Part shown: positions 17,386 through 64,000 of the stretch, in pieces | How the letters are laid out: each line of letters begins with the position of its first letter | Numbering within the stretch: the stretch's first letter is position 1 | Origin: Psammoneis japonica | Taxonomy: Eukaryota | Length of the DNA stretch: 64,000 nt | Direction: 5' to 3' | Assembly: GCA_008632985.1 (NCBI GenBank) | Contig: QPGO01000071.1 | Coordinates: 62,001-126,000 of the forward strand | Position numbers and translations under genes: made by a program | Notes under the pieces: model-generated | The model's database searches: none | Told to the model about the DNA's origin: nothing | The model's input: the letters and a program-made list of their open reading frames with translations, nothing else

Positions 17386-17799
17386 GGTTCAACAGCGTCA
17401 CTCTCTTCGAAACTATTGATCCAAACCACTAGTTCACAACACTCTCGTCTCTCGTCTCGTTTTGCCCAAGAAAAGGTGTGACGGTGTGACACAATCCTAA
17501 AAGCGAAAAGTGGCCGTCGGAAGAATGATGACGGCATGAGACTTTTCCTATTGTGGAGCTCGATATTCACCCTATTTATTTTTATTTGGCAACAAATAAA
17601 TTTCAAATGAGAGACACAAGAGCTCCAAATGGACATCATTGCGATTCCGCATAATGACAATGTCGCTGATGACTTAGGTTTTGGTTTTATCAAGGTCATT
17701 AAGGTCATTTGGACTTTTGCACGACATCGTCAAAAACCCGTTGAAAAATCGTTCGGTCTCGAAAATGAAAATGGCCGATTGCTTGGGGGACCGTTCATT

Positions 17800-20700
17800 G
17801 ACAGTTTTGCATGTGTCTGCCCGGTTGCCACAGCTGCTTCCCATGTCTCATGCATTGAAACCCTTGTGAATGTTGTGTGTTGTCAACCACACTGCTTCTT
17901 GTCTCCACCTGTGTGTGGCCTCTTTTGCTGACACAAGCAGGTGGTCTGTTTTGGGGTGTCCCATCAACAATGATTTCTCTGTTGTTGCTTTTGCTGGCTT
18001 GTTGCCTCCTCTCATTTACCCATCATGTTGTTTGACCCATGTGTGTGCCTTGCAGGAGGTTTGGGTGCACAAAAATTGTGGCTTTTGTGTCGTGGTGCAG
18101 AGAGGCCCAGCAGTTGTTGCACCCGCCCATTGTGATGATGCGCCAAGTGACTGACCTTGAGCAACTTGGAATGGAAAGCATCTCTGCAAATGGGGACATT
18201 TTGACAAATGTCAAAAAAATTTCATCTCAAACAACTGCATGCATGGGGGTGACTTTGTGAGACCAGCTCACAATGAAAAGTCTTTCAGCTCAGCCAATCT
18301 TCTTTTCAAGCCATCTTCCTCAACCTTCTTGTGTTAAAGAGCAATGGAGACATGGGTGTTCACTTGCATGTTGCAAGACATCACTCACTGGAAATTCAGA
18401 TTTGACATGTCCCATCTCTGCAATTAATCTGGAATGGGTGGTGGCAGGGTGGAAGCTCAGCTTGAAAATTTGTCGCTCCTGATGATGGCAGCATCAGCAT
18501 GAATTCGTTGTCAAAAATGCCAAAGTGCTGCTCTGCATTTTTGCTCTCCAGTCTACCAACTCTCTCCAAATTAATGACATCAAGGTAGAACCATGATTGC
18601 AGTTGCTTTGCTTGGGCATCAAAAGATTCCTTGGACCCAAGAAGCTGCTGCTCTGTGCACAGGAAAACCCAGGAACAGTGTGTGTCGTTTTCTTGAAGGC
18701 AGCTTTGAAAGCAGCCCCCCCCTGGCTGTCTCACTCTTGGTCACTTCCACACCAATTTTCTGCACTGCCACTGTCTTGCACTGCTGCAATTGGATCATTC
18801 ATTGACTTTCCCTCACTTTTCTGCGCCAGTGTGAAGTCAGAGGTGGCTGGAAATCTGGCTCTTGGTGGGTGGACACAGAATGGCACCATGTGATGTGGCA
18901 TCACAGGTGACTGAGCCAGTGCTTTCTTGCAAAACAAAAGTTCTGACACCAAACACAGCACCACAATGATCGCATCAGTGTGGCACAAGATTTGGGCTGG
19001 CTCCTGCAACAGCGCTGCAGTGGTGGCAGGTCTGTGCACTCATCCTGAGAAGCTTGCCTGCCACATCAGTTTGGAGCAAGTCCACTCTGTTAGAAGCCCT
19101 GTGCAGGCCTCTGCAAAATCCAGCACAAATTTTGACAGTGTTTGCATCATGCACATGGCAATGCACTCTCATGTTGATGTGCACACAGCATGCACTGCAC
19201 TGGTGTTGGAGCTCCCACGCACATGTTTGGTGTGTGGTTTTACTTTTTGCCAGCTCATGACCCACAAAAAACTCAATTGCTTGACTCATGTCATGCTGTG
19301 CCACACAAACATGACAAAAGAAACACAGCACTTTGTCTCTTGTCTTTGGTTTGATCCAGTGGATTGGTGGCAGCACAGGTGTGAAGAAGCACCCACCAGT
19401 GTTGACAGAGTTGACACACTGGTGCCTCATTGGGGAACAACTCTTGAGCTGCTCAGCGATGCAGTGCCTGACTGTTGGGCTGGAGCATTTGCAGCCACAG
19501 AGAGCACCATGCATGATTTGCATGAGCAAGAGTTTGTTTTCATCATGACATGGCAGTCTGATGGACATTCAAGAAAGTGGCAGAGATGCACTGCCCACTG
19601 CCACTGTTCCATGCACCTGGAGTCAGTTGCAGGTGATCTCTTTTTGAGTGCCTTCAATGCTTCACCACCTTTCACACAAGCAAGCTCAGAGATTTGCATG
19701 TCAAGCCATGCTGTGCAAATGACAACACAGCAAAGGCGCACATTGACTCAATCTTGATTGTGTGCTTTGATGGGTTCAGTGATTGGCTGAATGAAGCAGA
19801 AGGCAGGAGCAACATCACAAGTGCTTTTCTGCAAATTGCTGCCAAAAAGAATTTTTTCTTGAGAGGCAGTGGAATTGCCCCCATGTTTTGCATCCTGGAA
19901 GCAGCACAAAGGAGAGTGACAGGTCCTGCACTGACATGGGAAATCATGTGGGTGTGCTGCTGCCCTGCCAAATTGAGTTCAGTGACCCAGAGACTTGCAG
20001 CAAGAAGTCATTGCCCAGTGGGGTCTCAACCTGTGTTTTGTTGTGGTTGGGTGGAAAGATGGGAGCAACATGACAAGTGCTTTTCTGCAGAGTTGCTGCC
20101 AAAAAGATTTTTTTCTGGAGGCTGTGGAATTGTCCCCATGTTTTGCATCCTAGAAGCAGCAAAAAGGAGAATGATGGGTCTTGCAACATCAGAAATGTGG
20201 GTGTGTTGTTGCCCTGCCACATTGAGCTCAGCAACCCAGAGATTTGCAGCAAAAAGCCATTGTTGTCCAATGGAGTCAATCTGTGTTTTTTGTTGTGGTG
20301 GGGTGGAAAGACAGGAGCAACAGCACAAGTGCTTTTCTGCAGAGTTGCTGCAAAAAAATTCTTTCTGGAGGCAGTGGAATTGTCCCCATGTTTTGCATCC
20401 TGGAAGCAGCACAAAGGAGAATGATGGGTCCTGCAACATCAGAAATGTGGGTGTGTTGTTGCCCTGCCAAGAGTTGAGCTCAGCAACCCAGAGTCTTGCA
20501 GCAAGAAGCAATTGTCCAATGGGGTCAACCTGCATTTTGTTGTGGCAGGGTGGCTGTTGGTGTGTGCACTGCAGCACAGTGTGCATGTGACAGCTGTCTC
20601 GAGCTGAATGGGGTTCTCAAACATTTGGGCACTTTTCAAATTGAACCTGTTGGATTTGCTGCCCAGAACATGGCCACCACTGATGAACATCTGGCACATT

Positions 20701-21050
20701 TCAAGGGGATTGATTTAGTGCTTGAGGTTCAGAAAGCTGGGAGAGGCGGTTGAGAACAGAAGGCATGCAATGAGCAGAAGGAAGTGAGTCTTTGTGGAAT
20801 GTGCTCTCCAGCATCTGGTCACTCGCTCACTCTCCCGTTTTGTTGTTGTCAACACAGAGAAGACCTTTGGTGGCAGGGGGTCCATGAGAGGACATTTGTT
20901 ATTTTGTTCTGTTTCTGCAGACATGGCAGGTCCAGAATCATTCTCAGGGTTGCAGCCCAACATTGTGAGAGTTGATTCAGTCAATCCCATCAGCGATGAG
21001 CTTTTCCTGCAAGTCTGTTTCCTGGTGCTGCTGACAACAATGCTCGCTTG
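17800..21050. other. Hypermutated island 1 (TpA- and CpG-depleted, TpG/CpA-rich)
   Basis: Manual count gives about 11 TpA and under about 20 CpG in about 3.2 kb, while both are common in the flanking genes. Confidence 0.92.
19800..20550. repeat. Three diverged tandem copies of a ~255-bp unit inside island 1
   Basis: acaagtgcttttctgca near 19817, 20073 and 20325; each followed by ggaattg.ccccatgttttgcatcct.gaagcagca. Confidence 0.9.
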
Positions 21051-21815
21051 GAACAATTCAAGGAACTTGTAACAGTTAGAAAATTACCTCCGGCAGATGA
21101 GAGGGATCTCAACGAGCACATTCAAACCCTGGCCAATGACTGTTTGTCAAAATGGGGTAATCTACACGGAGTTGGACCGTTTCCTTCAGGAACTTCGTCA
21201 TTGGGAGCAACAAGGCGCCCTTGCAGAGTGCTTGAGTTGCTTGTCTGAGGATGCCAACGTCGACGAAGTTCAACGGTTATTAGAGGGATTTCGTGGCCAT
21301 GGTGTCATTGACTTGACACGTGCTAACGACATGGTTGATGGGGCGACAGGACTGCACGCCGTGAAATTATGAATGCCCGCAATGAAGCAGCACAGCGTGG
21401 TAACCCAGAAAGGGTGCCAGCCAGCAATTCAGGAGACTCTTCTGATAGTGAAACGGAACTGAGAAATTTGGTCTGACAATGCGAAGATAATAAATGGGCC
21501 GGAAGCTCTGCATTCTGCATTATAACTACGTAGTGAACGAACGAAAACGATTGAGTTCTTCAAGACAACTGAGTGGTACGACTACAGTTTTGTAGAGCTT
21601 TTTCCTAATGACGGTTGTATAAGGTGAAGGGGAAAGCAAAAATGCAGAGCAGGCTGTTCCCCAACCTCTACAATTTGATTATTTGCAATTGCCAATTGTC
21701 CCCACTCGGTAGATCCAAACAGGAGTCGTATTCAATACCCGTTGTGGCTCTTGGATTTATCGATGAATCTTGCTACTAAGGCGTTTCTTAATCAGCTTTT
21801 CTTGGGACAAAGTCA

Positions 21816-32093: not shown

Positions 32094-32299
32094 AGCTCTA
32101 GAGAGTATCTTTCGAGTATAGATTTATGCTCACTTGTGTGTTCAACAATACTACAGTAACAACATGAACACGCCGTCGACAAACTTCCCACGCCAAGATG
32201 AATTAGACGCAATAGTCTAGTTTCGATTGCTGCGGGAAGTTTGTGGGTGGCGTGAGCTGTTTGGAGTGTGTGAATGCGGTACGATTTGGGCGTGCGCGC

Positions 32300-33400
32300 T
32301 TCTTCCAGACTTGCAAATTCAGCAGTCAGCCAGCCAGCCAGATCAGATCAGTCAGTTTTCAGCAGTTCATTAGCACTCTCCATCACGAACAATGAGTTCA
32401 ATGAAAACAACAGTTTTGGTGTGTTTCCGGCCCTCTCCAAAAGCTTTGCAGTGCCACGCCACCATGTGCAAAGCACGCTAAGGACCCGTCCCCCTGCGCT
32501 GTTTGGCGGTGCACCCCCCCAGTCACTGTGAGAATGATGGCACAACCGAAAAATGGCATCTTTCATCACAGTTTGAGAAAAATCATGTCACACACTGCAG
32601 ACTGTGTCCCAAACTTTTTTGTGGCAGTGTCGGTGCCAAGTGGAACCTTGCCGGCTCCTGGCATTGTGCAAGTTGTGGCAGAGGGTCAGGAAGAAGAGAA
32701 AGACACTGCAGCTCTGCTGCACTTGAAAAAGGCTGACGCTCACAACATGATGACCATGCATGCCTGTGGTGGACCCAAGAGACAAGATCCTGTTCAACGA
32801 CCAATGCCGTTGTGGCAGGAGCACTCTGTTGGTGCTTTCCGGGACATCGTGCATCGTGCCATCTCCCAATTGTTCATGGAAGAATGGAAAGAGATCAAAG
32901 GTAAATGTCAGATGCAAGAATTGCACAAACATTGGCAAGACTGTCAGGTGCAACAACAACAAGACTCTGCCGCTGATCTTTTGTCATTGTGGTTCGAGCC
33001 CATGCAATTTGACAGTGACCCCACCAACGCCATTCAGTTTGCTTCTGCGTGATTCAATCTGGAACCCATTCCCAAGCCTCACATGATGGCAATCCATGGC
33101 ATGCAGCATCTTTCCTTGCAAGAGTCAGTGGCCAAAGATGGAGCGTGCATCAGAGAGACTCAAGGGTTGCAGCTTGCTTTTTGACTGTCCACAAGGTTTA
33201 ACTTGTGACACATTGAGGATGGCCTGGACAAGTGGCAAACATTGCGTTTGCTTGGATTGGCTTTCCAACCAACAACAGACAGAAGGCACTCCTTCACAGT
33301 CTTTCCAATCATTTTGAAACCAAACACAATTCACCTTGGACGCCACACGTTAGTGTCGCATGTGGGAATCCCGAATGCGACTTGCATGTGCGCGGCATGG
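32300..33400. other. Hypermutated island 2
   Basis: TpA nearly absent from about 32500 to 33340; TpG/CpA excess; composition returns to normal by about 33420. Confidence 0.85.
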
Positions 33401-34421: not shown

Positions 34422-36469
34422 GCCATGAAATCAGAACAATGTTTGTTTTAGAATTTATTGTCAAGCATGAGACACTTTCATATTTCAATTGCGAAGCAAC
34501 CAAGGCGGCGACGCGGCGGCGAACAATGAACAATCCTGATGCATGCTTTTGACCGGATGCCGGTTGTACCGTATGTCGCCTGCTGGTTGCTGGCATGGAG
34601 TGCAGGACAGACGGTGATGGGGTGAAGAAACAAGAAACTAATTGAACTAACAGGTTCCTTTGTGGTTGAGTTTCAGGGCACATCTATCAGACAAGCTGCT
34701 CTGCTAGAGACCTGGCAATGGCACAATGGCTCACACTTTGGAGGCCCCACTGGGAGGCAGAGTGAAGAGAGAGAGTGGCACCAAAAAAGTCTCAGCGGAT
34801 GTGCCATTCCCACTTGAGATGCTGCAAGCAGCGTGTGAGCATGGTGAGACTGAACTGGACAACTGTGCATTGGATCTGGCCAAATTGTGCCAGGAAGCAT
34901 GCACCATGAAAACACAAACCAAAATCAATCATGCTGATTTGGACAACATTGCTGCCGACCGTCCCTTGTCTGCCATTTGCACAGGAACAGAGAAACACAA
35001 CTGGACACAACCAAGAAAAAGGCCGTTGCACTTGATGGCAATGCTGAAAACTCTGCAGCAGTGTCTTGGGATGACACATTCTTGCAGAATTGGACAAAAC
35101 GCCTGGCTCTGCATGCTACAGAGATTGAAGGTGGCACAAAAACATTGAAGCTGTGATGCTCCAATGTGCAAAGAATGCTGCTCACCAAGACCAACAACAC
35201 CTGGGAACTGCCACAGCATCCCAAATCAAAGTGGATTGCCCCTGCAGCCTCTGACACCATGCATGCCATCAGCAAACATGCTGGCAGTGCACACAAGAAG
35301 TTCAAGAGCCATCTTGAAGGAGGGGTCAAGTTTCACAAGGAAGACTTTGACATCATCCTTGGTGCTCATTTAGACTCCACTGAGTCATGGAAGATGTGCC
35401 ATTCCCACTTAGATGCAGGAATCTTTGTCAAAAAGCAGGTGGCGGTGCTCAGCAGAAGAAAAATGTGATTTTCTAGAAGCTGCCTCAGAGAGGAGAAATG
35501 GGCCTTGCAGAGAGAGGGGTGCTGAAGAGAGGAAATGAGCTCCAGGGTGGAGTGGCGCCAGGGGGGCAGAACTTGTTGCTCAGAGGAGAAGCGCCAGGCA
35601 ACAGTCAGCAGACAAAGCAGGAGGGGAGCCACCAAAACAGCAAGCAGCACAAAGCACCCACCTTTTGCAGCTGAGGCAGCCAGTCAGCATGGACCCACAT
35701 TCTGTCCTGTGAATGTCTTGGAGCTTTCTTGCATGGTGCACTTTGGTTGATGGGGGGTGAGTTGGTGCCAGGGGCAGGCAAGCCATGAGCCGGAGGAGTG
35801 GGGAGCTTTGGAGAGCAGCTGCATTGTCATTGGCCATTTGCACTGCTCAGGAGGAGGGTGAGGCAGTTTTTGATGTCACAGGTTCTTGGAGTTGGATGCC
35901 CACAATGTTGCCAACTTTCCAAAGTTCTGCAGGGAAAGGAAAGAAGGAAAGAAGGACATTGTGGACAGCAAGCTGATGCCTGTTGGGTTCAAGATGTTGA
36001 CAATGGTGTTCTGGGCCTGCCTCTTTGGCAGGGGTGCTGGTGTGATGCAAACACCGCAAACATTAACAGCAGCTTCTTGGCATGGTTTTCATGTGGTGTG
36101 GCAATGTCTGACAAGGGCAAAAAAGGCATTGAGGTGGTCTGCAGATGACTGGGCAGCATGGAAGGGTGGGTCAGAAGCATCAATGTCAGCCACAATCCAG
36201 AGGGCATGGTCATGCAGGGGGAAGCAAATTGGTGCAATGTGGGAGGCCATGATGGGCAGGGATGGCACCACCCACCGGGTGTCTTTGGCATGGTCAGTGA
36301 AGCTTCTTGAGGGAGGAAGGTGTGCTGGCAGAGATGGGCTTGCATCTGCAAATGGGACAGGATGAAGTGGAGACATCCATTGTCCATTGTCACAATTTGT
36401 AAAGTGTGAGATGGGATGCTTGGGCCAGTCTTGCATGTGGAAGCATGCAGGCACTGGCCCAGAAGCAGA

Positions 36470-37014
36470 AGATGTGCAGTTTCTGCTGGAAGGGAGTTTG
36501 ACTTCACACTTGCAGTGTCTTGTCTTTTGGGGGAAGTGGAACAGTGCAGAGAGACAGGATTTGTTTTGACATTTTTGTGTCAGTCCACGTTGCCACATTT
36601 TTCACTCCTGCAGCAGGAAAAGCCAGAGCTGACCTTTTTTTTAATGGCAGAGAATGGTTGGATGTTTCAATGAAATCCCAGTCTGCTGTTTTGTCGCCCA
36701 CTTCTTTGTCTTTGCTGCAATTGGAACCAAGATGTTCTTCTTTGGGCAGATGCAGTTTTCTCAAGATAAAGCAATCCTCCTTCATCAACAATGTTGAGCT
36801 GCTCTAGGCACTTGATGCAGTGCTGTTCATGAGTGGGGACATCCGCCACCTTGGCAAGCATGGTTTTCTCAACAAAAACTTCAGACAATTGATCCGGAGA
36901 CAACTCACATTCAACGGCTCATTCCTCAATGCATTCATCACCAATGGCTCCCAAGTGCATGGTGATTTGTCTGCCAACAGCCAAGCAGGTTGCAGGAAGG
37001 TGAAAGAGAAAGAT
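36470..37014 (-). pseudogene. Hypermutated 3' fragment and 3' flank of the 43-46 kb membrane-protein gene family
   Basis: SPDQLSEVFVEKTMLAKVADVPTHEQHCIKCLEQLNIVDEGG aligns with SPDQLSEILVEKTMLAKAADIPIHEQYRIKYQEQLDIIDEGG; DNA aligns with about 44630-45143. Confidence 0.95.
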
Positions 37015-40000
37015 GGGCTTCCTGTGGGCCTCTGCCAAGGTGAAGCTGCACCCTGTCAACAAAAAAAGCAGCACCCTCACTTGGATTGGACAGCTCAGGT
37101 GACAATGCAGAGCACTCTTCATTGGATCCCAATGCATGAGATTTGTCAGCACCTGGAAGCATTTTGTGCACAGAGACATCTTTGTCTTTTTCTTTGGACA
37201 GAGATCTGTCTTGGTCACAGTCATTGTCATCTGATCCATGAGATGCATTGTCCTGCAAATCCATGTCAGGAAAATCACATGAGCCTCATGCCGCATTGCT
37301 GGGAGATTCAACCAAGATGACAGCAAGGGTGCACATGGGGGAGCCAGTGCCAGCAATGATGACAGGAGTGTCGCGGGAGGTGCCAACACCTGCGGTGTGC
37401 ACCTCACAGGATGATGATGACCAGTTCTCATGCTCCCTTTGGTGACTGAGAAGCGACACTGAGGCTTGGGACAGTTTGCCCAAATCAGACAAAGATGCAT
37501 CCACACAACCAATGGTGTTGGACCTGTGGCAACAATGGTGATGACAAATCTCATGTGTTGAGATCCAAATGGGGGGGNNNNNNNNNNNNNNNNNNNNNNN
37601 NNNNNNNNNNNNNNNNNNNNNNNNNNNNNNNNNNNNGTTGAGGGCAACTGTGCTGATTCATTTGAAATTGGTTTGCCGAGTGAGCATGGGTCGTGACTTT
37701 AAAAAATGTGGTTCACCATGGGACAAGCAGACAGAGCAAAGGCAACATCATGGTTGTTTGTCACCCCTGAAATGCACACATTCAGTGATGCACAAATGCA
37801 CTGCATTTGAAACTTGGGCGAGGTTGTTCGAATGGAACATGTTTCAAAATCAGAGGATGAAGAATGCAGACAAATCTTTTTTTTTTGCATTGGCTGGAAG
37901 AAGAAAAGGAAATAAAAGGCAACCTGATTTGTGATGGTCAACCTGGCAACACCACACACACAACCATCAGCAGAGCTTTGCAAAAGCATGCTGCACAACA
38001 AACAACAAAGAAAGCATGACAACTGTGGTGCAGAGGCAAATCAACACAGCTGAGAGAATGGCTGATGATGACAAGGTGGGTGGCAACATCATCAAGGTGA
38101 GAGACCATGTCAAAGAAAAGGTGTTTCTCAGCATCACATGTGTGTTTCATGCAAGGCAGCCAGAGGAAACAGGCATGTTGTGTGCAAAGACTTTGCCCAG
38201 AACTGTGAGCCAATGCTGGTGGATGGCACGCTTTTAGAGCTTCCAGAGGTGCAACAAATTTCATGCCTGCATTTCCTGTGGATGAAGATGAGACAAGCCA
38301 GGTTGCATCAGCCAGGAGCAGCTGGCAATGAAGTGATCAAATGCTCATCAGGCTCAGCAGGACAGGTTCTTTCATGGCAAGTGTGTCTGGTCAATGTTGA
38401 CAAATGAGGAGAAACACCTTGTTGTCATGTCATCCCCAGCTGTGCAGCACTTTGTGCTTGCTGCAAGAAGAACAGCTGCACATCTTGCTGTCACCAAAAC
38501 AATTCCAGGGTCATTTGTCATGCCCAACATTGCATGTGGTGCTCTGTGGCTGCCCTGTTGCAACCTGTTGCAAGACAAAATTGTTTGAAGAAGAGCCTCT
38601 CTGATGACATGAGGATGTGCACGTCATGTGCCAAAGCATTTGCACACATGCTTCTCAAGAACAACTTTGATGTGTGGTGTGCAGAGCACAAGAGCAACAA
38701 CACACCAGACAGCACTTTGAGGTCAGACTGTGACATGGAGGTCAAGAACAAAGGAAACCCAACTGGAAGGGCGGACTTGTGTGAAAGCATCCCACCATGA
38801 CCAGCCATTGCAGAGGAGCACAAGAGGATGCAAACAACAAATTGAGCATGTTCACCTTGTTGAAGAGAGACCCAGAAGAGCAGATGGAACAAGGAATGGT
38901 GCAGGAGCCAGTGGACTAGCTCAAGAGTGATGGGTGAAGAGGATGATGCTGCAATCTTGGGAGGGAAAGTCTGGCACTGAGCAAGAAGCTCCACACAGGT
39001 GTTGTTGGATGGTTTCCGTCAATTTGATGCAGACAAATCTGGCAGCTTGACCAAGAGGGAGTTTCTGAAACTGGTTTCTGGAATTGATTAAAAACTTCAA
39101 CAGTCACACCAACCAACCCCCTGGCTCCCACCTCATTGGACAGTGCTCAAGCGCAGCATTTGGTGCAGTGGATGGACACCCTCTAGAACCCAAAGTGGGT
39201 GCCAGCATGCATCGCCATGCCAGAAAAGATTTGTCCTCTGCTGCTGTGAAAGGAAACTGGTGGCAGCGCGCTTGCATTTGGCGTGCAGTGCACCCTCCAA
39301 TGTGCACCTGTGAATGCATGCAGGTGTTGTCATGGGTGAGAAAAAAGCATCTGAATTAATGCCTTCAGTGAAAAGAACATTGTGCTGCTCACCGAATTGT
39401 TCGGAAAAGACAAGTTCATTGCATCGTGACGTGACAAAGAGGAAAACACATGGACCAGCCATTGTGCAAGGAGTGCCACTGCTGCAATGCTTGTCATGAT
39501 CCTCTCCACTTGCCACAAACAGAAAAAGATGCGCAACACGATTGCGCACTGCCTTGCTGCAAACAACGAACAAGTGCTGTGGCAGGATGGAGGCTGCGAA
39601 CGCTGTGAGACTGACGATCCCCGTCAAGCGCAAGCCCTCGGCACTTTCATGAGTGTCTCTCTGATGATCCATGACTTTTTTGGATGAAACATTTGCCATG
39701 GGATCATTGCTTTGTCCTTTTCGTAATCTGCAAGCCTCCATTTCCGCTTCCTTGAAGTTGATGTCATCACTGTTGAGAGAATTGCACTTTTGCTTCAACA
39801 CAAAGTCAGTGTGCTCTCCTTGATGAGTGCAAAACAGGCATTTTGTGCACAAAGCATTGTTCCATTGCACTTGCAGCATTCAAAACCTGGCATTTCCGTT
39901 GCCGCAGGCTCATCATGTCGAGGATGCTGGACATCAGACGACCAACGCAATGATCTCAAAGAGTGACTTTTTTTTCCTTCCACGGCCAATCATTTCAAAC

Positions 40001-40377
40001 CAACGAGATTTGAATGAACACTTTGTAGAGTGTTAGACAAGACTGCCAAGTGTGAAGCTTCAGATCATTGCAGTCACAGAGTGGCAGGCCTCCAAGTTTG
40101 ATGCGCCATTGCGGACAGCCGACAGGCAGCGTGTTTTTGTTTTTTGTGTGTTTTGGCAGGTTTTTGGAATTTTTTTGAAGATTGACAAATCACCGGACGA
40201 CGGCCAGCACATGGTGGCGAATTTCAGACCGTCAGCGTTCCCGCAGTTCACAGATTCACTGAGCGATTGCAGATGAATGAACAGCTCGACCTTGGAAGCT
40301 GTGAAGCTGCGTTGTCATCCCAACCGCTTTGACAGCTCACCCCGACCTTGTGCCACAACAAGCTCTGTTTCTTTACA

Positions 40378-40704
40378 ATGAACGACGATGCGAACGATCG
40401 CTTTCGGTTCGGCTCTCGCGAAGGACTCGATCGGCCTGACCTTCGAAACAAGATCAACGACATCCTTTTGCATGACTGGGATCCCATCGGCGCAATGGGC
40501 TTTTTCGATGACGTTGACTGTGGTGCCGTTCGAGATGAGCACCGGGATCATGTCCCCGACGTCTTGCGCTTGTTGCAAAGCAGAGGGAACGAGCAGCAGA
40601 TGTGTGAGCTGCTGCACCAAATTGGAAAGGACTGGTGGAGAGAGGATGCACAACCGGAAGACCACACGGTGGTGGCACAAAAGCTTGTTGCATTGATGGA
40701 GTGA
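40378..40704 (+). pseudogene. Small WDPIG...DEY-type protein gene with Tyr codons apparently converted to His/Cys
   Basis: ILLHDWDPIG...RDEHRDHVPDVLRLL resembles a WDPIGV...DEYDxY motif I recall from small bacterial-type hypothetical proteins; no Tyr and no TpA in the ORF. Confidence 0.55.
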
Positions 40705-43013
40705 GGTCAAGAACGTCATGTCCCGGAGAAGTGCGCCAGCAAAAACATGGGTTTGTCACACAGTGGCATGGTGTTTCGGCACGAGCATGTGATTTCTTTT
40801 CGCACACTTTGTTTTCGTTGCTTTGGTTGCACACAGCGATTCGTGAAACAAAGTCGTAAACCATGCCGTTCCGTGCAGCTTTGTCTCAGTGGTTTTTCTT
40901 GTGTTGGATTACAGTCACAGCAGCATGCCCGAAACAACCCGGCAATGTGTGCTTGACAACTCCAAAAATGCCCTTGCTGGAACAAACCACCACGACGCTG
41001 CAAAAACCTCGTCCTTCGCAGCACCAGCAGCGTCTGTTTCGTCGATTGTTGCCTCGATGGGGTTTGGTGGCAACCAGCAGTCGTGCAAAGACACAATTGC
41101 ATGTGTCGTGAAAAATGCAATGTCCCGCATCATGCTGCGTTTGCTTTTCTCCTCTCCATTTTCTGGGAACACCACAGCAACATTCGCAAGGGACTGGAAG
41201 CCAAGAGAAAAAGTGCAATCATGGCCACCAATGGCAGCCACAATGGCCATCCTATCCAGAGAACTGGAAAAACTGGAAGCCTCAGCAAAGCAAGCAGCAA
41301 CAATCATTGCTCAGAGGGCAAGCATGAGCCAGTCACCCTGAAAACTCGTTGACATGTCGTGCACAGTTTCTCAAGAACTGGGCACCGCATTCATGGATGA
41401 TGGTGCTGCTGTGAAATGTCTGGGGCTGGCTTCCACTGTTTCCAACAAGGCCTTGACTTTGGGCTTCAAATTCTGACAGAAAATTGAAAAACAGATGAAG
41501 CCAGCTGCCAGCACATGTGCACTGGCCAGGTTCATCAGATTGCCCTGACATTGTGGGCAACCTGTGGCCGCTCCAGACTGCCAAGGCAAATGTGCGAGCG
41601 TTGCAGCAAGAGACCTTGCAAGATTTCCTTTTGGTGATGTTGAATTGCCCGCTTGACAGTTGTTGGCAACAGGGGCACAGTTGAAAGTGGATCACCAGTC
41701 TTTTCCTTTTTCTTTGTCAAACTTTTGGCTGGCACCTTGGCAAGCAGTGAAAAAGTGAAGGCAGCTTGTCAAGCCCCTGGGTTGTCACAGATGTTGCTTT
41801 CACTGTCATGATGGACAAACACAGAAACAAGGTTTTGGTGCTTTGCAGTGGTGTTGGCTTGCCAGATGATCTGTGGAGTGACGTTGAGGTTGTCATGATG
41901 TGGCGAAAATTGATCTTGTCCATCCTTGGTTGCCAGATGTTCCACTGCTGGCCATGATGAACAAAGCCAGAAACAATGATTTCATTCCTTGCAGCAGTGC
42001 TGAGCTTGCCATGTTTCTACAGAGGGTGGCTCAATTTGTCATGATGATGACAGCTCTTGTTGATCTGTGCACATGTTTGCTTTGTTGTGAGCGCAGCAAT
42101 GAAGATTCCATGTGGCTCTTTTTGAAAGAGCCATGCCATGGAGGAGAAGCAAACAATCTGAGCAAGCCTGGTGCCTGTCTCTGCATCATCTGTCTGATGC
42201 ATTGTGTGTGCACAGGTGCACATTGTTGGATGTGTGAGGTTGCCACAGAGGGGCCTCGCTGTCTGCCAAAGAGCACAGCATCACTGGCTCTGGTGTTGGC
42301 ACCTCCTTTAGATCTTCTCACAACTTTGTTTCATGCAAGCTCTTGAGGGCAGCAGCATGAGTGTGTTGAAGGCAGGAGGGAAACTGCAATGAGGATGGCA
42401 ACCATGGCACAGCAATTTTAAAAGTGGCAGCCAGCCAGAGTTGAGGGACCCCAAGGTGTCACAGTGGTGGACCCAGGGTGTGGGAGAGGTCAGGGCAGCA
42501 GCACCAGCAATGAAGGATCCACATCACATGCTGGCCACAAAGCCATGGTCATCAGCCATGGTTGTCATGAGGGTTTGAATGGGGAGGCACAATGAAAGAT
42601 CAAACATCTTGAGAACATCCAATGAATGAACCAGCTGTGCGCCCCTGATGCCCAGAACAAAGGACAGTCCGACCCAAATCTGGCTGGACAAGAGAGGCTT
42701 AGATCAGTCACTTTGAGCATTCCATGACTGACTCCTTCTGTTGTCACACTTGTTGGACGTGCAGCTCTGCCTCTGCCACAACAATCAAATCGAGTCTGCA
42801 ATGCAAAGAAGAAATCTTTCTTCGCAACAGATCTTGAGGAACTGCAGTTTCTACTGCAAGAAAGTTGCACTGCGCGCTCACGGTTTTTTTTGGGGGGGGG
42901 GGGGGGGGGAGGCCCAGTAGCAGCTCTACTCTGGAAGAGCAGTCCACGTCGCTGCTTACAGGAAAAAGTGCAACTCGATAAGTCTGCATTGATAGACATT
43001 TCTAGAAAATCCT

Positions 43014-43979
43014 CTAGTCTGACTTTTTATCACCCACTTGTTCGTCTTCGCCGTAACCAGAACCAAGATATTCTTCTTCGGGTAGACGCAGTTCCTCCAG
43101 ACGAAGCGATCCTCCTTCTTCAATGATGTCGAGCTGCTCTTGGTACTTGATACGATACTGTTCATGGATAGGGATATCCGCCGACTTTGCAAGCATGGTT
43201 TTCTCGACGAGGATTTCCGACAATTGATCCGGAGACAACTCGTATTCAAGGGTTCGTTCCTCAATGCGCTCGTCACCAATGGCTCCCGTGTACATGATAA
43301 TTCTGCCAACGGCCGAGTAGGTCGAAGTAATGTGAAAGAAAAAGATTGTAAAAGCCACAGTAATTGGTAACGCCACTTGCCAGGCAGCCAAGACGTAGAA
43401 GAAGAGGTTGATCCAAATGTAGTAAATGTAAACGCTTAACATTCCAAGACGAACGGGAAGGGCCACGGCGTAGATAAAAATAGAACTTCTCAAGAGGAGA
43501 TGAGCGTTCTTTTCACTAATTTTGACCATGAGAGCCCATGCCGTCAGAATAGCCAACAAAGAAAGGAGAGAGACAATTGTTCCAAGGCAGAGAAACAAAC
43601 CTGCCCAAAATGCAACGGTATCAATGTCTCTTGTTTCCAAGGCCGTGCGAGCCTTTTCGGTTGGACGAGACGGACTAAACAAAACGGAGAGCTGGGAACC
43701 GAGCAAAAGCGTCATCATTGTGGAAAGCGATGCAAAGCGACTAGTAAAGAGCGAAATAATCTCTTTTCCATTTGATTTTCCATAAAGGATGTGCAACCTC
43801 CATTTGTCGGTCAATTCCACGCCGTAGAACGTATCCGCAACACGTTCGAGGGTCTGAAATAGATAGCCACTCCAGGCATGTCGTGCCCCATGAGGCGGTT
43901 CCTCGGTATCAGGGTCCAACATGCTGGCCCGATGCGAACGCGACGACACATGGTTCGCAGATGTCATTGCGCCGTACAT
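43014..43979 (-). CDS. Multi-pass membrane protein of unknown family, copy 1
   Basis: About 321 aa from MYGAM; 4-5 hydrophobic helices and an acidic tail; paralog adjacent. Confidence 0.8.
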   Translation of the reverse strand: MYGAMTSANHVSSRSHRASMLDPDTEEPPHGARHAWSGYLFQTLERVADTFYGVELTDKWRLHILYGKSNGKEIISLFTSRFASLSTMMTLLLGSQLSVLFSPSRPTEKARTALETRDIDTVAFWAGLFLCLGTIVSLLSLLAILTAWALMVKISEKNAHLLLRSSIFIYAVALPVRLGMLSVYIYYIWINLFFYVLAAWQVALPITVAFTIFFFHITSTYSAVGRIIMYTGAIGDERIEERTLEYELSPDQLSEILVEKTMLAKSADIPIHEQYRIKYQEQLDIIEEGGSLRLEELRLPEEEYLGSGYGEDEQVGDKKSD

Positions 43980-44810
43980 TGTCTGGATGCAAGAACGACG
44001 AGAGCAAAAGATATTCACAATAGGACACCATCAAAACGATGCGCAGATTCATGGGAAAAGTCAAAACAGTGTGCTTCATGATATGGGTGAATCCCGCTCC
44101 AGGGTGAGTCCGTTCATGTGCAAGACTGAAAAATCTTGAATGACAAGAATGAACTGAAATTTACTTGAAGTTCGCGAGTTTTGGTGGCGACTTTCAGTCG
44201 TGCAACGACAATGGTGTAAATACCGGTATCTGCTCTTTCGAAAACCAATATTCAAATTTTATCTCGGGAGTGTTTTTTACGCACTTTGTATTCTGGCACT
44301 GCAGCAGTGAATAACGCCTGGGGCCGTCGAAATCGGAGGAGTGGCGGCAGGGCCGCAGTTGCAGGCCCCATGCACGATTTTATAGGAGGCCCTGTCACAG
44401 CAGCAATTGACACATTGGACCAGGTCCCGGTGTTGCGGGCTCGGCTACCGTACACACGGATCACTTTGAGCCCTCTATGACTATATGGCTTGTTCTGTTG
44501 TTATTAATACGTCATTGTTGGAGGCGTGGCGCTCTCTGCCTCTACAACAGCCATCAAATTGAGTCTGCACAAAATGCACAAGAAGAAATCTTTCTTTGGT
44601 GGATATACTGAGGAACTCCTGCAAGAAAGTTGGACTACGCACCCGCGGTGTCTTTTTTATGGGGGGTTGTGGAAGATCAAAGAGAGACAGGATTTGTTTT
44701 GGCATTTTTGTCCGTCCACGTCGCTGCATTTTTTACTCCTATGTAGGAAAAACTAGAGCTGACCATTTAAAAATTTATAGCAGACAACGGTTAGATATTT
44801 CTAAAAAATC

Positions 44811-45777
44811 CTAGTCTGACTTTTTATCACCCACTTCTTCGTCTTCGCCGTAATCGGAACCAAGATATTCTTCTTCGGGTAGACGCAGTTCCTCGAGACG
44901 AAGCGATCCTCCTTCATCAATAATATCGAGCTGCTCTTGGTACTTGATACGGTACTGTTCATGAATGGGGATATCCGCCGCCTTGGCAAGCATGGTTTTC
45001 TCGACAAGAATTTCAGACAATTGGTCCGGAGACAGCTCGTATTCCACGGTTCGTTCCTCAATGCGCTCGTCACCCATGGCTCCCGAGTGCATGATAATTC
45101 TGCCCACGGCCGAGTAGGTTGTAGAAATGTGAAAGAAAAAGATTGTAAAAATCACCGTTATGGGTAACGCCACTTGCCATGCAGCCAAAACGTAGAAGAA
45201 GAGGTTGATCCAAATGTAGTAAAGGTAGACGCTTAAAATCGCAAGTCGAACGGGAAGGGCGGCGGCGTAGATAAGAACAGAACTTCTCAAGAGGAGATGA
45301 GAATTCTTTTCGCTAATGACAATCATGAGAGACCATGCCGTCAAAATAGCCAACAACGTAAGGACAGAGATGACTGTTCCGAGGCAGAGAAACAAACCTG
45401 CCCAGAACGCAACGGTATCAATGTCTCTTGTTTCCAAGGCCGTGCGTGCTTTTTCGGTTGGACGAGACGGACTAAACAAAACAGACAGTTGGGAACCGAG
45501 CAACAGAGTCGTCATGGTGGAAAGCGATGCAAAGCGTTGAGTAAAGAGTGCAGATAAGCTCTTTTCCATTGGATTTTCCATAAACAATGTGTAATCTCCA
45601 TTTATCGGTCAATTCCACGCCCCAGATCGTATCGCCAACACGTTCGAGGGTCTGAAACAGATAGCCACTCCAGGCATGTCGTGCTCCATGAGGCGGTTCC
45701 TCTGTATCAGGTTCCAACATACTGCCCCGATGTGAACGAGACGACACATTTTTCGAAGACGCCATTGCGCCGTACAT
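44811..45777 (-). CDS. Multi-pass membrane protein, copy 2 (1-bp frameshift near 45550)
   Basis: ORFs 45472-45852 and 44811-45587 together are collinear with copy 1. Confidence 0.8.
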
Positions 45778-46152
45778 TGTCTGGATACAAGAACGAAGAG
45801 AGCAGAAGATGTTTACAGTACATAGAGTTGCACCATCAAAAAACGAAAACATGTCTCATCTCTCATCTTCAATCTTCAGGATCGCGGTGCGCATTTTTTT
45901 GGAGTTTAACCGACACCTCCGGGTTTGCTTATGTCATCATTACGTCACGATGTCATGTCGTCTCTAAGTATCTTTTTTGCGCAAAATCTGCGCATCACTC
46001 ATCCAACTGCTCATGTCACGCACATCACAACGCGACGATGCTTCCTGCCTGATTGCATCCATCCACAATCCACAACTTCGCGGTAGTCAAAAACGGCCTT
46101 GTGTGTATCCTTTGCGCTCTGGATAGTGTGTCTCATATATCTCACTAAAACC

Positions 46153-50619: not shown

Positions 50620-51950
50620 GGTGCGTCTCCCAGCTAGCTAGAGATTGTGTTCAATGAGAGAAGAGATTGTTTTAGGTCAAATCGTAGTGACAGGCTTTGT
50701 CAGAGATGGCATGGATCATGCCACTGCCCACGAGACAGTGGTGGTTGTTCTGCGAAGTCATCCTCAAGCTTGTCAAAAATGTTCTCAGCTTTTTTTTGCA
50801 AAAGCTGCCATTCACAAAAGACTCAGACAGGCAAAACCCATCACGAGTGCCTTTGTCACATGTGAACTTGTTGGGGCAGAGCTGGGGTGGGTGGTGGGCT
50901 GGGACCCTTCGCCTCTCTGGCCAAATGTGTCTTTGTGACAGCACCCCCCCAACTTTTGGAGTGAAAAGTGGCACACAGTGTCATCAGAAGATTGCTCCAC
51001 ATGTGTGTGCATTTGGCATGCAAATGGCATGCTCTGCAGATGTGCACCTCTGCACAGAAGCACTGGGCACATGGTGCACAACATGCGCCGCTGCGCGCCA
51101 CATGCTGGAGTTTGCGTGCTCTCTCTCACACTCTCCAGGCTGGCTGGAGTTTGGCTGCCCTGCATCACATCTCCTGGCTGGCTGGACATTGTGTTCAACA
51201 ACAAAAGAGATTGTTTTGGCAGGTTAAAATCACAGTGACTGGCTTTGTCCAAGATGGCCAGGGTGTCATTGCGAGCGGTTCTGTGCATGAAAAATCGAGG
51301 AAGCACGAGCCAAAAAAGGGCAACGGCGCGCAACTCTTGTTGTGCAGCATTGTCAACATGTTGACAGTCACCAATTTTTGAGCTTGTCAAGACATTTTCA
51401 GTGTGTTTTTGCAAAGACTCAAAAGACTCTGACAGGTGAATCCTATCACAAGGGTCCACAGCTTGGGGCAGTGCTGGTGCTGGTGCTGGTGATGGGCCAG
51501 GAGGCACAAGTGGATGGACTGGAGCATTTTTCTCAATGTTGGAACTGTCATGGCAGCTTGTGCAGACTTTTTTGGAAAAAAATGATAAAGCCATCCTTGC
51601 CATTTGTGCAATGACGGAAGTGCACATGTTGGCACCAGACTTTGACAGAACATTTTGTTTGTGCATGTGTGGTTGGAAGGAAAAGCTGGTTGAAATTCTT
51701 TGCAGTCATGGCATTGATACCGGGAACCAGGGTGAGTGAGTCAGAAGGGGGAAGGGGCTGATGCAATCGCCAAATGGCATTAAGTCAGACACAACACTGA
51801 GCAGCGGCAACAGGTGATTGACCAGGGCCCTGGCCTTGTCCCTGTTTCAAGTAGTCGTTCTCCACAGGCCTGCAATGGTTGTCACCATCTCACCATGACA
51901 TGACTTTCAAGGATGCTGTCATTTAACAGTTTGGGTAAAATGAGGTGTGC
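50620..51950. other. Hypermutated island 4 with a diverged internal direct repeat
   Basis: TpA nearly absent from 50700 to 51700; attgtgttcaa..aagagattgtttt at about 50644 and 51188; agcttgtcaa...aaaagactc.gacagg at about 50767 and 51381. Confidence 0.88.
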
Positions 51951-58898: not shown

Positions 58899-59105
58899 TG
58901 GGGGAAGACTCCAGCCAGCTGCTGGCTGAAAAAAGTCTGCTCGTCAGTGCGTTTGGGGGTTTTGCCAGTACAATTTTTATGTACGCAAAAGATGTCGAGT
59001 CTGTCCAGCGCTCGCCAAACCCCCTAACGCACAGATTGACAGACTTTATCAGTACAATTTCTACACAAGATTCTTCAGCCAGCAGCTGGCTGGAGACTTC
59101 CCCCA
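58899..59105. mobile_element. 207-bp MITE-like element with 32-bp TIRs and 4-bp TSD (GACT)
   Basis: TGGGGGAAGACTCCAGCCAGCTGCTGGCTGAA (58899-58930) matches the reverse complement of 59074-59105 with one mismatch; GACT at 58895-58898 and 59106-59109. Confidence 0.85.
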
Positions 59106-59109
59106 GACT

Positions 59110-61080
59110 GACGACTGACCAATTTTTGCTGAATTGCCAGCGCGCGCGAGAAAAGGGCCAACCACGTCATCGCATGCCCGCGATGCCACTACAGACCATC
59201 CACATGCCATGACATTGAACCAGTCGACAGCACACAGAAGCCGGCTGCGGTGTTGGCCCAACAGCCACCATCGGCAGTGTCAGGCCTCATCACAAACCAA
59301 ACTGCTTCAGCGCCTGATTTTGTTCTCCTCCTTGCAGCACTCACCCAAAATTGATCTCTCTCTGAGAGGCTCTGCTGATGCTTTTTCCAACCAGTGCGCC
59401 AGTCTTGCTGTGCGCTGCCATGCGCTCTTTTTTTGCTGTGTTGGAGAGAAGTTTGTGGACCTTCCATCTGGTCAGTGCATGAATTTCTGCCACATGGGTC
59501 ATGCCCCCTTGTTTGCACTTCCCAGCATTTCATCATGAGCGAGTCAGGCGCGCGCAAACATTGTTCTCTGGAGGGCAGTGTGAGAGGCAGCCATTGTGTC
59601 ACTCTCTGGACCATGTAGAAGAAACATTTCAGTCACTTTCATTTCATTTGTTTGGCATTGCCATGCATGGACACCATGTCTCTGGTGTGTGACAGCAAGC
59701 ACTTGCTTTCTGCGCAGCCCATGGGGGTGTCCTCTGCCAAAAAAGTGTTTGCTGTTGTTGTGCTGGCTGCTGTCCTCACGCAAGCAGCCCCTCCATTGAT
59801 GCTCCTTGTTGGCCATCTTGGCAGTCTCTTGTGTGTTCGTTTTAATGTTTCAACATCCTTTTCCACCCAAGTGAGTCACAACCTGGCCACACAGTGGCGC
59901 CACCTGGCTGTGTGCATGAAAGCTGAAATGTTTCACATCTCTGGCAGATGTGCCCAAGCAACCACATGAATGAGCATGTGCGAATGACAACAGACAATTT
60001 GTGCACCTCTGCCCAACTGCCACCACACTGGGCTTTGCTCATCACATTTCACAATTTGCAGCTCAGGTTCTTCCACACCACCTGCTTCTTTCTCAATGTT
60101 GACCAAGAGATTGTCTCAAATGACTGGCAGGCAAAGGGAGAAAGAGAGAGGCACATGGTGCCAAAAAAGGAGCAGCTGGAGTCTGCAGGCAGGATGAAAA
60201 AAAAGAGCTTGACAAGGACATCTGGCTTTGACCTTCTTGAAAGCAGTCTTGAGTGTGCAAGACCAGCTCATTGCTCATTTCAGGAGGAGATCATCTCCTC
60301 CTGTCGGGTGTGTGTTGTGACAATTGTCTTTTTGGAAACCCTGGCATCATTGCAACTGTCAAAACAACTTTGAGAGAGAGAGAGAGAGAGAGAAATGCCA
60401 GCACAGGTCTGCCCAACAAGAAAGTGGTGCCAAAGCTGTTTTGTGAAATCATGTTCTGGCATCTTCCACCAAGGGAAAATTGTCACATGGTCGTGTCTGA
60501 TCTCAGCTGACCGGCGCCCTGGCACAAAATGTCAAATGGGGCAAGCAGTGCCAGAGAGAGTGCCAGAGCTTCAGCTTCTCAAGTTCCTCAGCAAGAAGGC
60601 TTTCTGCCAGGGCCTGCAAGTTGGGGTGAGGCACAAAAGCTGAGACAAGACTTCATCACCAGGGTGCTGGGAACCCTGTCCTGGAACATTTTTGTGAGAT
60701 GTTTCCCAACAGCAGCATTGGAAGAGCAGACTTTGATTGGCAACAATGTGAAAGACATGTGCATCACATGCAACATGTTGCTGTTGTTGCATGCGCCACA
60801 TGTTTTTACTCCAAAGCAAGATGAAGGGACTGCCTGTCACACCTCCCTGTGTGCTGAGCAAGGGCTGAAAGTTGCATCTCTGTTGGAGCAGCACCCAATT
60901 GTCTTCCCTCCCCCCACACCCTCAATTCAACCACCCTCTCATCACACAATTCATCATTTGCCATTGTGTTGCAGGCAGTCTTTCGAATCAACAATCAACT
61001 GTAAATGTGCAGATGACAGACAATTTCAAGACCAAAGATGTCCCTGAAAACTGGCCTGCCAACTGAGGAAGAATGGCTTC
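59110..61080. other. Hypermutated island 5
   Basis: Very few TpA and CpG over about 1.9 kb; TpG/CpA-rich; includes a (GA)n run at about 60372-60393. Confidence 0.9.
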
Positions 61081-62399: not shown

Positions 62400-64000
62400 A
62401 CCCAAGGGTGTCACAGTGACATCGGAGTTGAAGGAGCCACGTCACGGCGAACTTCTCAAAAATCGAATACTTCGATTAGATTCTGACTGCATGTACCATG
62501 TACGACACATGCTCCACTGACTAGAGCCAGGCAGCAGAGCACTTGCTGCTTGTGCTGGCACAGGAGCACAGGGCCCATTACAACCCTGTGCCACCTTAGC
62601 TACTCTGCTGGCAGCTTCTATATAAAGAGCTGCTCTCTCATGAGAGTCAAGAGAGCTGGCGCCAGACTGCAGCAAAGCCTCTCTGCACAGCCATGTGCGC
62701 TCATCTCAGGGCTCTCTGCTCTTGCTGGCACAACAGCTCATTCCCAAATGAGGTCATGAAGTTGCAATGAGTGAGTAGATTCAAAAATGTCACATCAGAA
62801 ATGACAAACTCCATGCTGGTGTGTGCCACACAGCACAACACAAAAAAAGAGCTCCTTGGTCCTCGAGCACAGCACTCACCCCCCCCCCCCCCCCCGGCCA
62901 AGACAAATGCACAAAGGGCACATCATCACATTGCGCCAACTTGTCCTTGGTGTCCTGCTTCTTCCACAACTTCATCTGTGCCCCCCCTTGTGTGAGCAGA
63001 CTGGCGGGCTGCGGCACAGATTTTCTGTTTTTGCCGCCACAAACAAGCGTCCTTCATGCTCTTTTTTGCACCACTGTCCAATTGTGCACAGCAGCCAGAG
63101 TCATGTGCAAGGGTCAAGTGCAGTGTGCTTTCATCCCAGGTGCAAAAACAATGCACAATCTGTGCAGATGTCAGATGCCATGTCTGTCCTTCTTCTGTTG
63201 TGCCATGCATTTTGTGCGAGCAATCATGGCTGCTGGCTTTCTCCCCAATTTTTTTGTTTTGCTTCTTTTCTCAGGTTTGTTTCTTGTTTTGTGAGGTGCT
63301 GCCAGCTGTCACTCTCATTGCTTGGATCTGATGTCAATGCTGCATCAAGCCAAATGCCAAGCACTGATCATCATCATCTGACATTGGAGCACATGCTTTC
63401 AGACTGTTCACATGACTTGTTCATTTTGTTGCCACCATTGCAATGTGGCTCACTTTTTTTCATGCACAAAAACACCTTTGTTGCTTCCCATCCATCCATG
63501 CTGCAAAAAGCATTTCAGCATGAGTGCAAGTGTGAGCTGTTTTGGTTGGCACAGCAAAGCCAATCACAGAGAGAGCTCAAGATTCTGGCAACTAAGTTGA
63601 TGAGGAAACGGGTGCAGATGATGAAATGGAGGCAAAGCCCTCACAACACCTTTCACAATTCAGCATTGGTGCCATCATGCAGTGGGAAAACATTGATGCT
63701 CCATGCCGCTGCAACAAAGCCATGTGTCTGCTTGTCCTGGATTGCAGGAAGGGACCCAAGCGATTCTCATCTTGATGAGTTCTTTGCTTTGACTCCATTT
63801 GATCCTTCTGCAGAAGATGCCCGCAATGAAATCTTGTCTTGCATTGCTTGGGAAAGAGGTGACAGAGAGCTGCAGAGGTTTGTTTGATTTAAGGAAAATG
63901 AAGCTGACTTTGAGGAGGTTGGCTTGGCAGGTGGCTGACAAGAAGCCAACACAATCAAGCAGTGCTTCTTGTGGATGAATCAAATGTGGCCCCATGCAAC
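62400..64000. other. Hypermutated island 6 (runs off the window)
   Basis: TpA and CpG nearly absent after about 62800; poly-C at about 62879-62895; Tyr-free Cys/His-rich ORFs. Confidence 0.9.

Follow-up and report, generated by a model that had tools for sequence, protein, structure and literature searches.

TpA erasure with and without CpG decay in bounded domains of a diatom-like genome

The stretch analysed here (the window) comprises 64,000 nucleotides of Psammoneis japonica, positions 62,001 to 126,000 of contig QPGO01000071.1 (assembly GCA_008632985.1); all positions below are those of the window. TpA dinucleotides have been erased from six bounded domains of this DNA (islands), which are also depleted of CpG to differing degrees. 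We focus on a sub-block of the largest island, at 39200..41190, where TpA is erased and CpG remains near background. This sub-block is the clearest, though not the sole, case of TpA erasure without CpG decay. The loss of TpA in the islands is mutational, and both the conversions and their direction can be read from an island copy of a tandemly duplicated gene. We explain these patterns by a TpA-specific mutational process overlaid by a slower CpG decay, the sub-block having entered the hypermutated state later than its flanks; taken as a whole, this explanation has an even chance of being right.

TpA-erased domains

A criterion of at most 2 TpA per 300 bp delimits six domains, which sum to about 17.3 kb (~27%) of the window. 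The largest, at 34661..42900, spans 8.2 kb with sharp edges and shows observed/expected (o/e) ratios of 0.06 for TpA, 1.83 for CpA, 1.74 for TpG and 0.30 for CpG. The remaining five lie at 17681..21060 (CpG o/e 0.14, with tandem repeats of ~250 bp inside), 32281..33400 (0.48, the CpG decay being only partial), 50641..51780 (0.29), 59061..61080 (0.25, with CpG kept in the left 500 bp and the remainder decayed) and 62641..64000 (0.18, extending past the window end). Across all six the TpA o/e is 0.03-0.08, and CpA and TpG stand at 1.7-2.0. The non-island DNA of the window, which serves as background, has a TpA o/e of 0.58 and a CpG o/e of 0.98, corresponding to 0.0402 TpA and 0.0546 CpG per step. 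The TpA edges of the domains are sharp at 100-bp resolution.

The sum of the pyrimidine-purine steps (TA, CG, CA and TG) is unaffected by these shifts: its fraction is 0.234-0.254 in the islands and the sub-block and 0.242 in the background. Such constancy is expected if TA and CG simply turned into CA and TG.

The CpG-retaining sub-block

The initial annotation, drawn from the letters alone, had pointed to a run at 40376-40856 with no TpA but more than 30 CpG, eleven of them within 40381-40440, and to similar adjoining stretches. Recounting bears this out. The nearest TpA flank the run at 40374 and 40857, with 36 CpG between them (CpG o/e 1.11), and 40381-40440 does hold 11. On either side, 40040-40370 contains 0 TpA and 16 CpG, and 40915-41200 contains 0 TpA and 15 CpG. 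The background density predicts 19.3 TpA for the core run at 40376..40856, where none is seen (Poisson P = 4e-9).

The CpG-retaining block extends from about 39200 to 41190, slightly wider than first described. Counted over 39200-41250 (2051 bp), it holds 7 TpA where 82.4 are expected (Poisson P = 9e-27) and 96 CpG where the background predicts 112, for a CpG o/e of 0.76. The rest of the large island (34700-39199 and 41251-42800, 6050 bp) has 46 CpG and 21 TpA. The two parts thus differ strongly in CpG (Fisher p = 1e-26) and are indistinguishable in TpA (7 versus 21, p = 1.0). Within the sub-block, CpG density peaks at 40100-40600 with 6-10 per 100 bp and declines to either side; the right edge is sharp, with one CpG at 41185 and the next at 41347.

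Residual CpG in the islands outside 39200-41250 is enriched for GCG and CGC contexts: of 140 such CpG, 57 follow a G and 56 precede a C, the background share being about 0.21. Flanking bases preferred by the methyltransferase, or by the decay itself, may lie behind this enrichment.

Direction of the mutations

The change from TpA can be calibrated on a gene family at the edge of the large island. Two intact tandem paralogs lie at 43014..44018 (minus strand; 334 amino acids (aa), no Pfam match) and at 44811..45587 (minus strand), and serve as ancestral references. Inside the island, 36483..37014 (minus strand) carries a copy of the 3′ part of this gene together with its downstream flank. Plain identity between the island copy and the intact copies is 65-77%; when the sequences are coded as purines and pyrimidines, it rises to 93-95%. 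The intact copies are both untouched and differ from one another at 28 of 351 aligned columns (roughly 90% identity). We took their agreement as the ancestral state, which is available at 323 of the 351 aligned columns (alignment A1, columns 275-632).

Every ancestral TpA has been lost from the island copy (13 of 13), seven becoming CA, five TG and one AA. Ancestral CpG is lost at 18 of 20 sites (11 to CA, 6 to TG, 1 to TA). CpA and TpG are largely retained (12 of 13 and 12 of 15, respectively), as are ApA steps (15 of 19, versus 0 of 13 for TpA). Transitions account for 45 of the 51 differences. The island copy, downstream flank included, sits in place beside its tandem relatives and keeps register with them; the mutation therefore took place at the DNA level, in situ and on both strands. 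Since the intact copies, at ~90% identity, are untouched, duplication alone is not the trigger.

Independent mutation of separate copies is visible elsewhere. Each pair of the ~250-bp tandem repeats within the 17.7-21 kb island differs by 2-3 adjacent CA/TG swaps, and TA/TG, CA/TG and CA/CG swaps separate a 111-bp segment across the boundary of the 50.6-51.8 kb island from its island-internal copy. Swaps of these kinds are the expected outcome if a single ancestral TA or CG took its own course in each copy.

The TpA that survive in the islands (n = 51) show a strong YTAR bias (Y, pyrimidine; R, purine). Their 5′ neighbours are T in 27, C in 13, G in 8 and A in 3 cases, and their 3′ neighbours A in 22, G in 17, C in 9 and T in 3. 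Among background TpA, G and A together make up 63% of the 5′ neighbours; survivors and background differ with chi-square p = 2e-9 and 4e-5. Either the process favours RTA and TAY contexts, or the survivors are new TpA that arose from CpA or TpG.

The reading frame within the sub-block

The core of the sub-block contains a 108-codon open reading frame (ORF) at 40378..40704 (plus strand). An open frame by itself means little in the islands because TAA and TAG cannot occur there, and 31 ORFs of at least 60 aa overlap 39000-42000. This one is a real gene remnant, since it has homologs: an exhaustive HMMER search with the ORF retrieves 21 proteins at E<=1e-3, four of them at E<=1e-10, with 32-49% identity over ~85 residues. 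The family is unnamed and consists of small proteins with WDPIG and DEYxxYVP motifs. Most members are either bacterial, with a length of ~90 aa, or encoded on short metagenome or transcriptome contigs; a cluster look-up places the nearest relatives among the 10 best matches in the latter group. A word-index protein search with the ORF found no match, and neither Pfam nor NCBIfam matched it (0 matches in each). Pfam searches with 14 family members gave chance-level scores (E>=0.047), and the best hit of a profile search of the PDB (E 0.023) is not meaningful. No second copy of the domain was found in the window.

The domain is uncharacterised and oddly distributed: beyond small bacterial or protist-like proteins, it occurs in multiple copies in animals, with 14 matched stretches in a 2368-aa protein annotated in electric ray and 5 copies in a sea-cucumber protein (proteins P0001 and P0008).

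The initial annotation had read the translation as LLHDWDPIG..DEHRDHVP without Tyr and proposed that TAY codons became CAY. The translation indeed has 0 Tyr in 108 residues (40378-40701). In the DEYxxYVP motif, Tyr occupies both positions in 13 of 13 homologs (alignment A2); the window has His at both, encoded by CAC (40540-40542) and CAT (40549-40551) within CAC CGG GAT CAT, His-Arg-Asp-His, at 40540..40551 on the plus strand. Native His at these positions, which would have refuted the proposal, was looked for in the 13 aligned homologs and is not present. In nine further domain copies judged by eye (in P0002, P0003, P0004, P0012 and P0018), all nine have the first Tyr and seven have the second. 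A table of changes against an intact homolog had been suggested as a check. Homologs were found and could be compared as proteins, but none is close enough as DNA: the viral_contigs collection holds 7 loci of the family at 26-48% identity, too distant for a nucleotide change table, and a metagenome search with a narrower alignment yields 1 locus at 30% identity.

Because the nearly invariant Tyr-x-x-Tyr pair is His-x-x-His here, the window ORF reads as a decayed rather than an intact member of its family. The gene is most plausibly dead, or has at the minimum lost the protection of selection.

Order of the two decays

Although TpA is lost to the same extent throughout, CpG is not. The TpA o/e of 0.03-0.08 is accompanied by CpG ratios from 0.14 to 1.11: the six domains range over 0.14-0.48, the flanks within the large island over 0.12-0.16, and the sub-block reaches 0.76, with 1.11 in its core. 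This agrees with the earlier proposal that TpA loss runs faster than, or independently of, CpG decay. The two decays can also be compared across the whole stretch in 318 windows of 200 bp, those with 0-1 TpA being scored as TpA-low. Among the 72 TpA-low windows, 41 are CpG-low, 18 intermediate and 13 CpG-normal. Among the 223 TpA-normal windows only 4 are CpG-low, and these lie across island edges (3) or within an island (1, at 18401). CpG decay is therefore never seen unless TpA has been erased as well, whereas TpA can be erased with CpG still in place. Of the 13 TpA-low, CpG-normal windows, the sub-block accounts for seven and three other islands for six.

The asymmetry can be expressed as rate multiplied by time, assuming exponential decay from background densities. 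The values are 2.47 for TpA and 0.15 for CpG in the sub-block (a ratio of ~16), and 2.45 and 1.97, respectively, in the flanks; these figures are arithmetic on counts rather than measured rates. On such count arithmetic, the TpA rate in the sub-block would be at least ~16 times the CpG rate.

Comparison with a second set of contigs

One public DNA run, kept as contigs and called X1 here, shares 85% of the sampled words of 34500-43500. Over 28000-47000 it differs from the window at 155 places; 40 of these differences are listed, all at or before 40044, and the counts that follow refer to them. Twenty fall in the island. Ten of the twenty are CpG versus TpG or CpA, with CpG in the window in 3 and in X1 in 7; four amount to two adjacent CA-versus-TG pairs, and six are other changes. 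None is TpA versus CpA or TpG. In the sub-block, 3 of the 6 differences are of the CpG type, the window carrying the decayed form. Among the differences listed, this suggests that CpG decay is still segregating, the sub-block included, and that TpA erasure is fixed. At 34947-34948 and 35602-35603 the window has CA and X1 has TG, two adjacent letters each, which fits one ancestral TA or CG resolved independently in two lineages.

Contig depth at 37.5-38.8 kb is 2-4 times the baseline, which indicates a repeat. An assembly gap of 59 N at 37577-37636 adjoins this stretch within the large island, and gap and depth together are probably due to a multi-copy element that the assembler did not bridge. 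Depth is 83-103 at 38.8-40.7 kb, versus ~60 elsewhere, and a loose contig end at 39861 runs on into sequence with TpA and CpG; both hint that the sub-block has another copy or a junction elsewhere.

Proposed mechanism and alternative explanations

In the explanation that we put forward, a process acting on DNA in bounded domains would convert nearly all TpA to CpA or TpG. Its chemistry would consist of A:T to G:C transitions restricted to the TpA step, on both strands, and the responsible enzyme might be a DNA-acting adenine deaminase that favours a 5′ T, in line with the proposal made for the alga Bigelowiella natans. A second, slower process in the same domains would turn CpG into TpG or CpA; its simplest source would be deamination of 5-methylcytosine (5mC) in methylated repeat chromatin, methylation being the presumed cause. 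At 39200-41190 the fast TpA process would be complete and CpG decay barely begun, and the block would carry a dead copy of a small gene, two invariant Tyr codons having been rewritten to His. The conversions of TpA and CpG with their direction, the replacement of Tyr by His and the unequal progress of the two decays are matters of observation. The timing, in which the block entered the hypermutated state later, is our favoured reading over a patch that escaped methylation, at about an even bet.

Several observations weigh against it. The edges of the sub-block carry neither a target-site duplication nor a terminal repeat, with short chance-level matches only, so that there is no positive sign of an insertion. 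The CpG maximum at the 5′ end of the ORF, with its falling sides, would also fit a promoter-like patch kept free of methylation. None of the 84 island stop-to-stop ORFs of at least 90 aa has a Pfam match, so that no transposon or viral protein can be recognised, unlike in B. natans, and one target is a tandem duplicate of the host. Finally, the X1 comparison covers 40 of the 155 differences, with a polarity that we infer.

Some of these points lead to the possibility that the 8.2-kb domain is uniformly old and that 39200-41190 was kept CpG-unmethylated like a promoter CpG island, TpA hypermutation being independent of 5mC. The CpG maximum (o/e 1.11) covers the ORF start and the DNA just before it and is flanked by lower shoulders, which agrees with this possibility, as does the missing insertion signature. 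Other TpA-erased stretches that keep CpG adjoin genes at domain edges (32.4-33.4, 51.2 and 59.2-59.6 kb), and diatoms have methylated repeat blocks alongside unmethylated gene regions (PMC5124317). On the other hand, the three CpG-type differences among the six listed against X1 in the block, with the window decayed, suggest raised CpG mutation there, albeit from a small number. In addition, the shoulders (CpG o/e ~0.5-0.8) are already partly decayed, and an open promoter would be odd for a gene in which both invariant Tyr are destroyed. We regard a differently marked block as possible but doubtful. A single enzyme with two activities, namely a deaminase acting on A in TpA and, more weakly or with an extra cue, on C in CpG, would make the sub-block an early state. 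This would accommodate the confinement of CpG decay to TpA-erased domains (the 4 CpG-low windows among 223 TpA-normal ones lie at island edges or inside) and the common CpA/TpG product of both conversions, and the preprint on B. natans cites amphioxus ADAT2 as editing A and C in DNA (10.64898/2026.01.13.699255). Yet 230 of 231 mutations in the hypermutable regions reported there are at A:T, which leaves no C activity, and the CpG methylation of diatom repeats (PMC5124317) explains CpG decay without a new activity; the idea is improbable.

We give very little credence to two further accounts. One supposes that the block was never hypermutated and holds a functional or horizontally acquired ORF, natively free of TpA, whose CpG are kept by selection. 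The frame is open over 108 codons and the family has bacterial and phage-contig relatives. However, an open frame carries no information in DNA that cannot contain TAA or TAG, the Tyr pair of 13 of 13 homologs is His in the window, and the absence of TpA with retention of CpG spans 2 kb, well past the 327-bp ORF. The other invokes RNA-level A-to-I hyperediting of double-stranded transcripts by an ADAR-like enzyme that prefers a 5′ U, the edited RNA then being reverse-transcribed and inserted back into the genome. Editing of the ADAR type prefers a 5′ T neighbour and yields A>G, and both features match; the Discussion of the preprint raises this route too. Against it stand the mutated gene copy, which sits in place and in register beside intact tandem copies with its downstream flank included, the near equality of TpA>CpA and TpA>TpG changes (7 versus 5), and the sharp edges of domains that include tandem repeats mutated after duplication. 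Each of these two accounts is thus highly unlikely.

Host and other features of the window

The window encodes PP2C/kinase, RCC1-repeat, MOT1 transporter and PCIF1-type products, and is thus eukaryotic DNA. Its 2-hydroxyacid dehydrogenase shares 65-71% identity with proteins of Seminavis, Fistulifera, Nitzschia, Amphora and other diatoms, which is why the host is called diatom-like (Stramenopiles). A scan against Rfam gave 0 matches.

A gene at 48293-49978 (minus strand) encodes a 561-aa protein with a hydrophobic N-terminal stretch, likely a signal peptide, and dozens of KGYE/GKGYEYAKGKGYE repeats, without a Pfam match. The TpA o/e of this Tyr-rich repeat gene is 1.09-1.35, and it provides an internal control: the TpA process leaves ordinary genes alone.

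The 17.7-21 kb island is flanked by two tandem duplicates on the minus strand (14359-17385 and 21816-24845), spaced by ~7.45 kb and 88-91% identical over 300-nt segments. Both are unmutated; their product is ~1008 aa long and has a DXD glycosyltransferase domain.

The PCIF1-type protein is encoded at 7555-8301 (plus strand). It contains an NPPF motif and thus resembles a cap-specific adenosine N6-methyltransferase. A hit of the same gene, taken at 7561-8301, to the 'DAAD deaminase' model (Dictyostelid AID/APOBEC-like; E 0.0075) falls below the cut-off and is probably noise, as no deaminase motif is seen.

Implications

Localised TpA-specific hypermutation is so far known from one 2026 preprint on a rhizarian alga, and a search of one literature library for TpA hypermutation in diatoms or beyond that B. 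natans preprint found none. What is new here is the same signature in another, diatom-like eukaryotic lineage, where it is saturated and overlaid by a slower CpG decay. The initial annotation had expected the block to isolate a novel component. It does show the TpA component alone; the component itself had already been reported in B. natans. That a domain-targeted, TpA-specific hypermutation operates in diatoms too, independently of cytosine methylation, removing TpA at least ~16 times faster than CpG decays and preferring RTA/TAY over YTAR contexts, is a proposition that we regard as evenly poised.

The 2-kb block separates the TpA process from ordinary CpG decay at a single locus. TpA erasure accordingly needs neither completed CpG decay nor, possibly, CpG methylation, and if hypermutation of this kind does operate in diatoms, 39.2-41.2 kb would be a natural substrate that shows the TpA process alone. 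Diatoms have a dominant ecological role and include species open to genetic manipulation, so that the process would be widespread and work on its enzyme could shift to such species. There are also practical consequences for annotation. Island ORFs in such genomes are meaningless because TAA and TAG are gone, and gene finders and homology searches should allow for the substitutions that decayed island genes carry, namely Tyr to His or Cys and Arg to Cys, His, Gln or Trp.

Comparison with known systems

The closest counterpart is found in the nucleus of B. natans. In mutation-accumulation lines of this alga, 231 of 302 nuclear mutations are reported to fall in one integrated giant-virus region and one virophage region, and 230 of these 231 are A>G or T>C, all on TpA (Mettrop et al., bioRxiv 10.64898/2026.01.13.699255). 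The preprint gives a regional rate of ~6e-7 per site per generation and a G/C>A/T rate of 3.9e-9 in the giant-virus region (10.64898/2026.01.13.699255). From its figures (231 mutations, 3132 generations, 6169+2300 TpA) we compute a per-TpA rate of roughly 1e-5 per generation, at which TpA would vanish long before CpG decays. The window shares the main traits described there: A:T>G:C transitions limited to TpA, giving TpG or CpA by strand, in bounded regions. Independence from G:C>A:T mutation would be a further trait in common. Transitions are confined to TpA (12 of 13 ancestral TpA became CpA or TpG), and six sharp-edged domains lie in normal surroundings. The absence of G:C>A:T changes holds in the sub-block (CpG o/e 0.76-1.11) and fails in its flanks and the other islands (0.12-0.48), so that CpG loss may be a process separate from TpA hypermutation.

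The two cases also differ. B. natans is a chlorarachniophyte, whereas the host of the window is diatom-like. TpA erasure is saturated in the window (o/e 0.03-0.08), whereas the active nucleocytoplasmic large DNA virus (NCLDV) region of B. natans has a reported Rho of 0.45. The targets described in B. natans are integrated NCLDV and virophage DNA; the window shows no recognisable viral or transposon protein, and one of its targets is a host tandem duplicate. As to foreign targets, relatives of the ORF occur among bacterial proteins and on phage contigs (26-48% identity), and part of the island is multi-copy by contig depth. CpG decay is heavy in the window domains; the main text of the preprint mentions 'CpG' 0 times, although its supplementary Fig. 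S8, which deals with other dinucleotides, may be relevant here. Finally, B. natans shows current mutation in its accumulation lines, whereas none of the 20 island differences listed between the window and X1 is of TpA type.

Ordinary methylation chemistry explains only one part of the pattern. Diatom methylation is reported to lie mainly at CpG and to concentrate on repeat blocks beside unmethylated gene regions (PMC5124317). Decay by 5mC deamination accounts for the loss of CpG to TpG and CpA in the large-island flanks as well as in the remaining islands. It cannot remove TpA, and it is nearly absent from the sub-block (96 versus 112 CpG) despite complete TpA loss.

Two known routes to mutation or editing at A:T can be set beside the window. 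In the somatic hypermutation of WA motifs by DNA polymerase eta, A:T is mutated at AA and TA alike; this route does not match the island copy, in which ApA is kept at 15 of 19 sites versus 0 of 13 for TpA. The adenine deaminases ADAR, ADAT and TadA act on RNA in their normal roles and have a 5′ U/T preference. The islands resemble their products in the A>G outcome and in T as the 5′ neighbour, and differ from them in carrying the change in the genome itself, where it is fixed in situ and affects both strands.

Fungal repeat-induced point mutation (RIP) offers the closest of the classical parallels. RIP changes C to T mainly at CpA, which creates TpA and removes CpA and TpG. Like RIP, the process seen here works domain by domain through near-saturating, dinucleotide-specific transitions, which kill duplicated or foreign DNA in place. 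Its direction is the opposite: TpA is destroyed (o/e 0.06) and CpA and TpG are created (1.7-2.0), so that the islands do not qualify as RIP. If hypermutation of this kind does operate in diatoms too, the TpA process would be a mirror image of fungal RIP and a chemistry of genome defence widespread among SAR (Stramenopiles-Alveolates-Rhizaria) eukaryotes.

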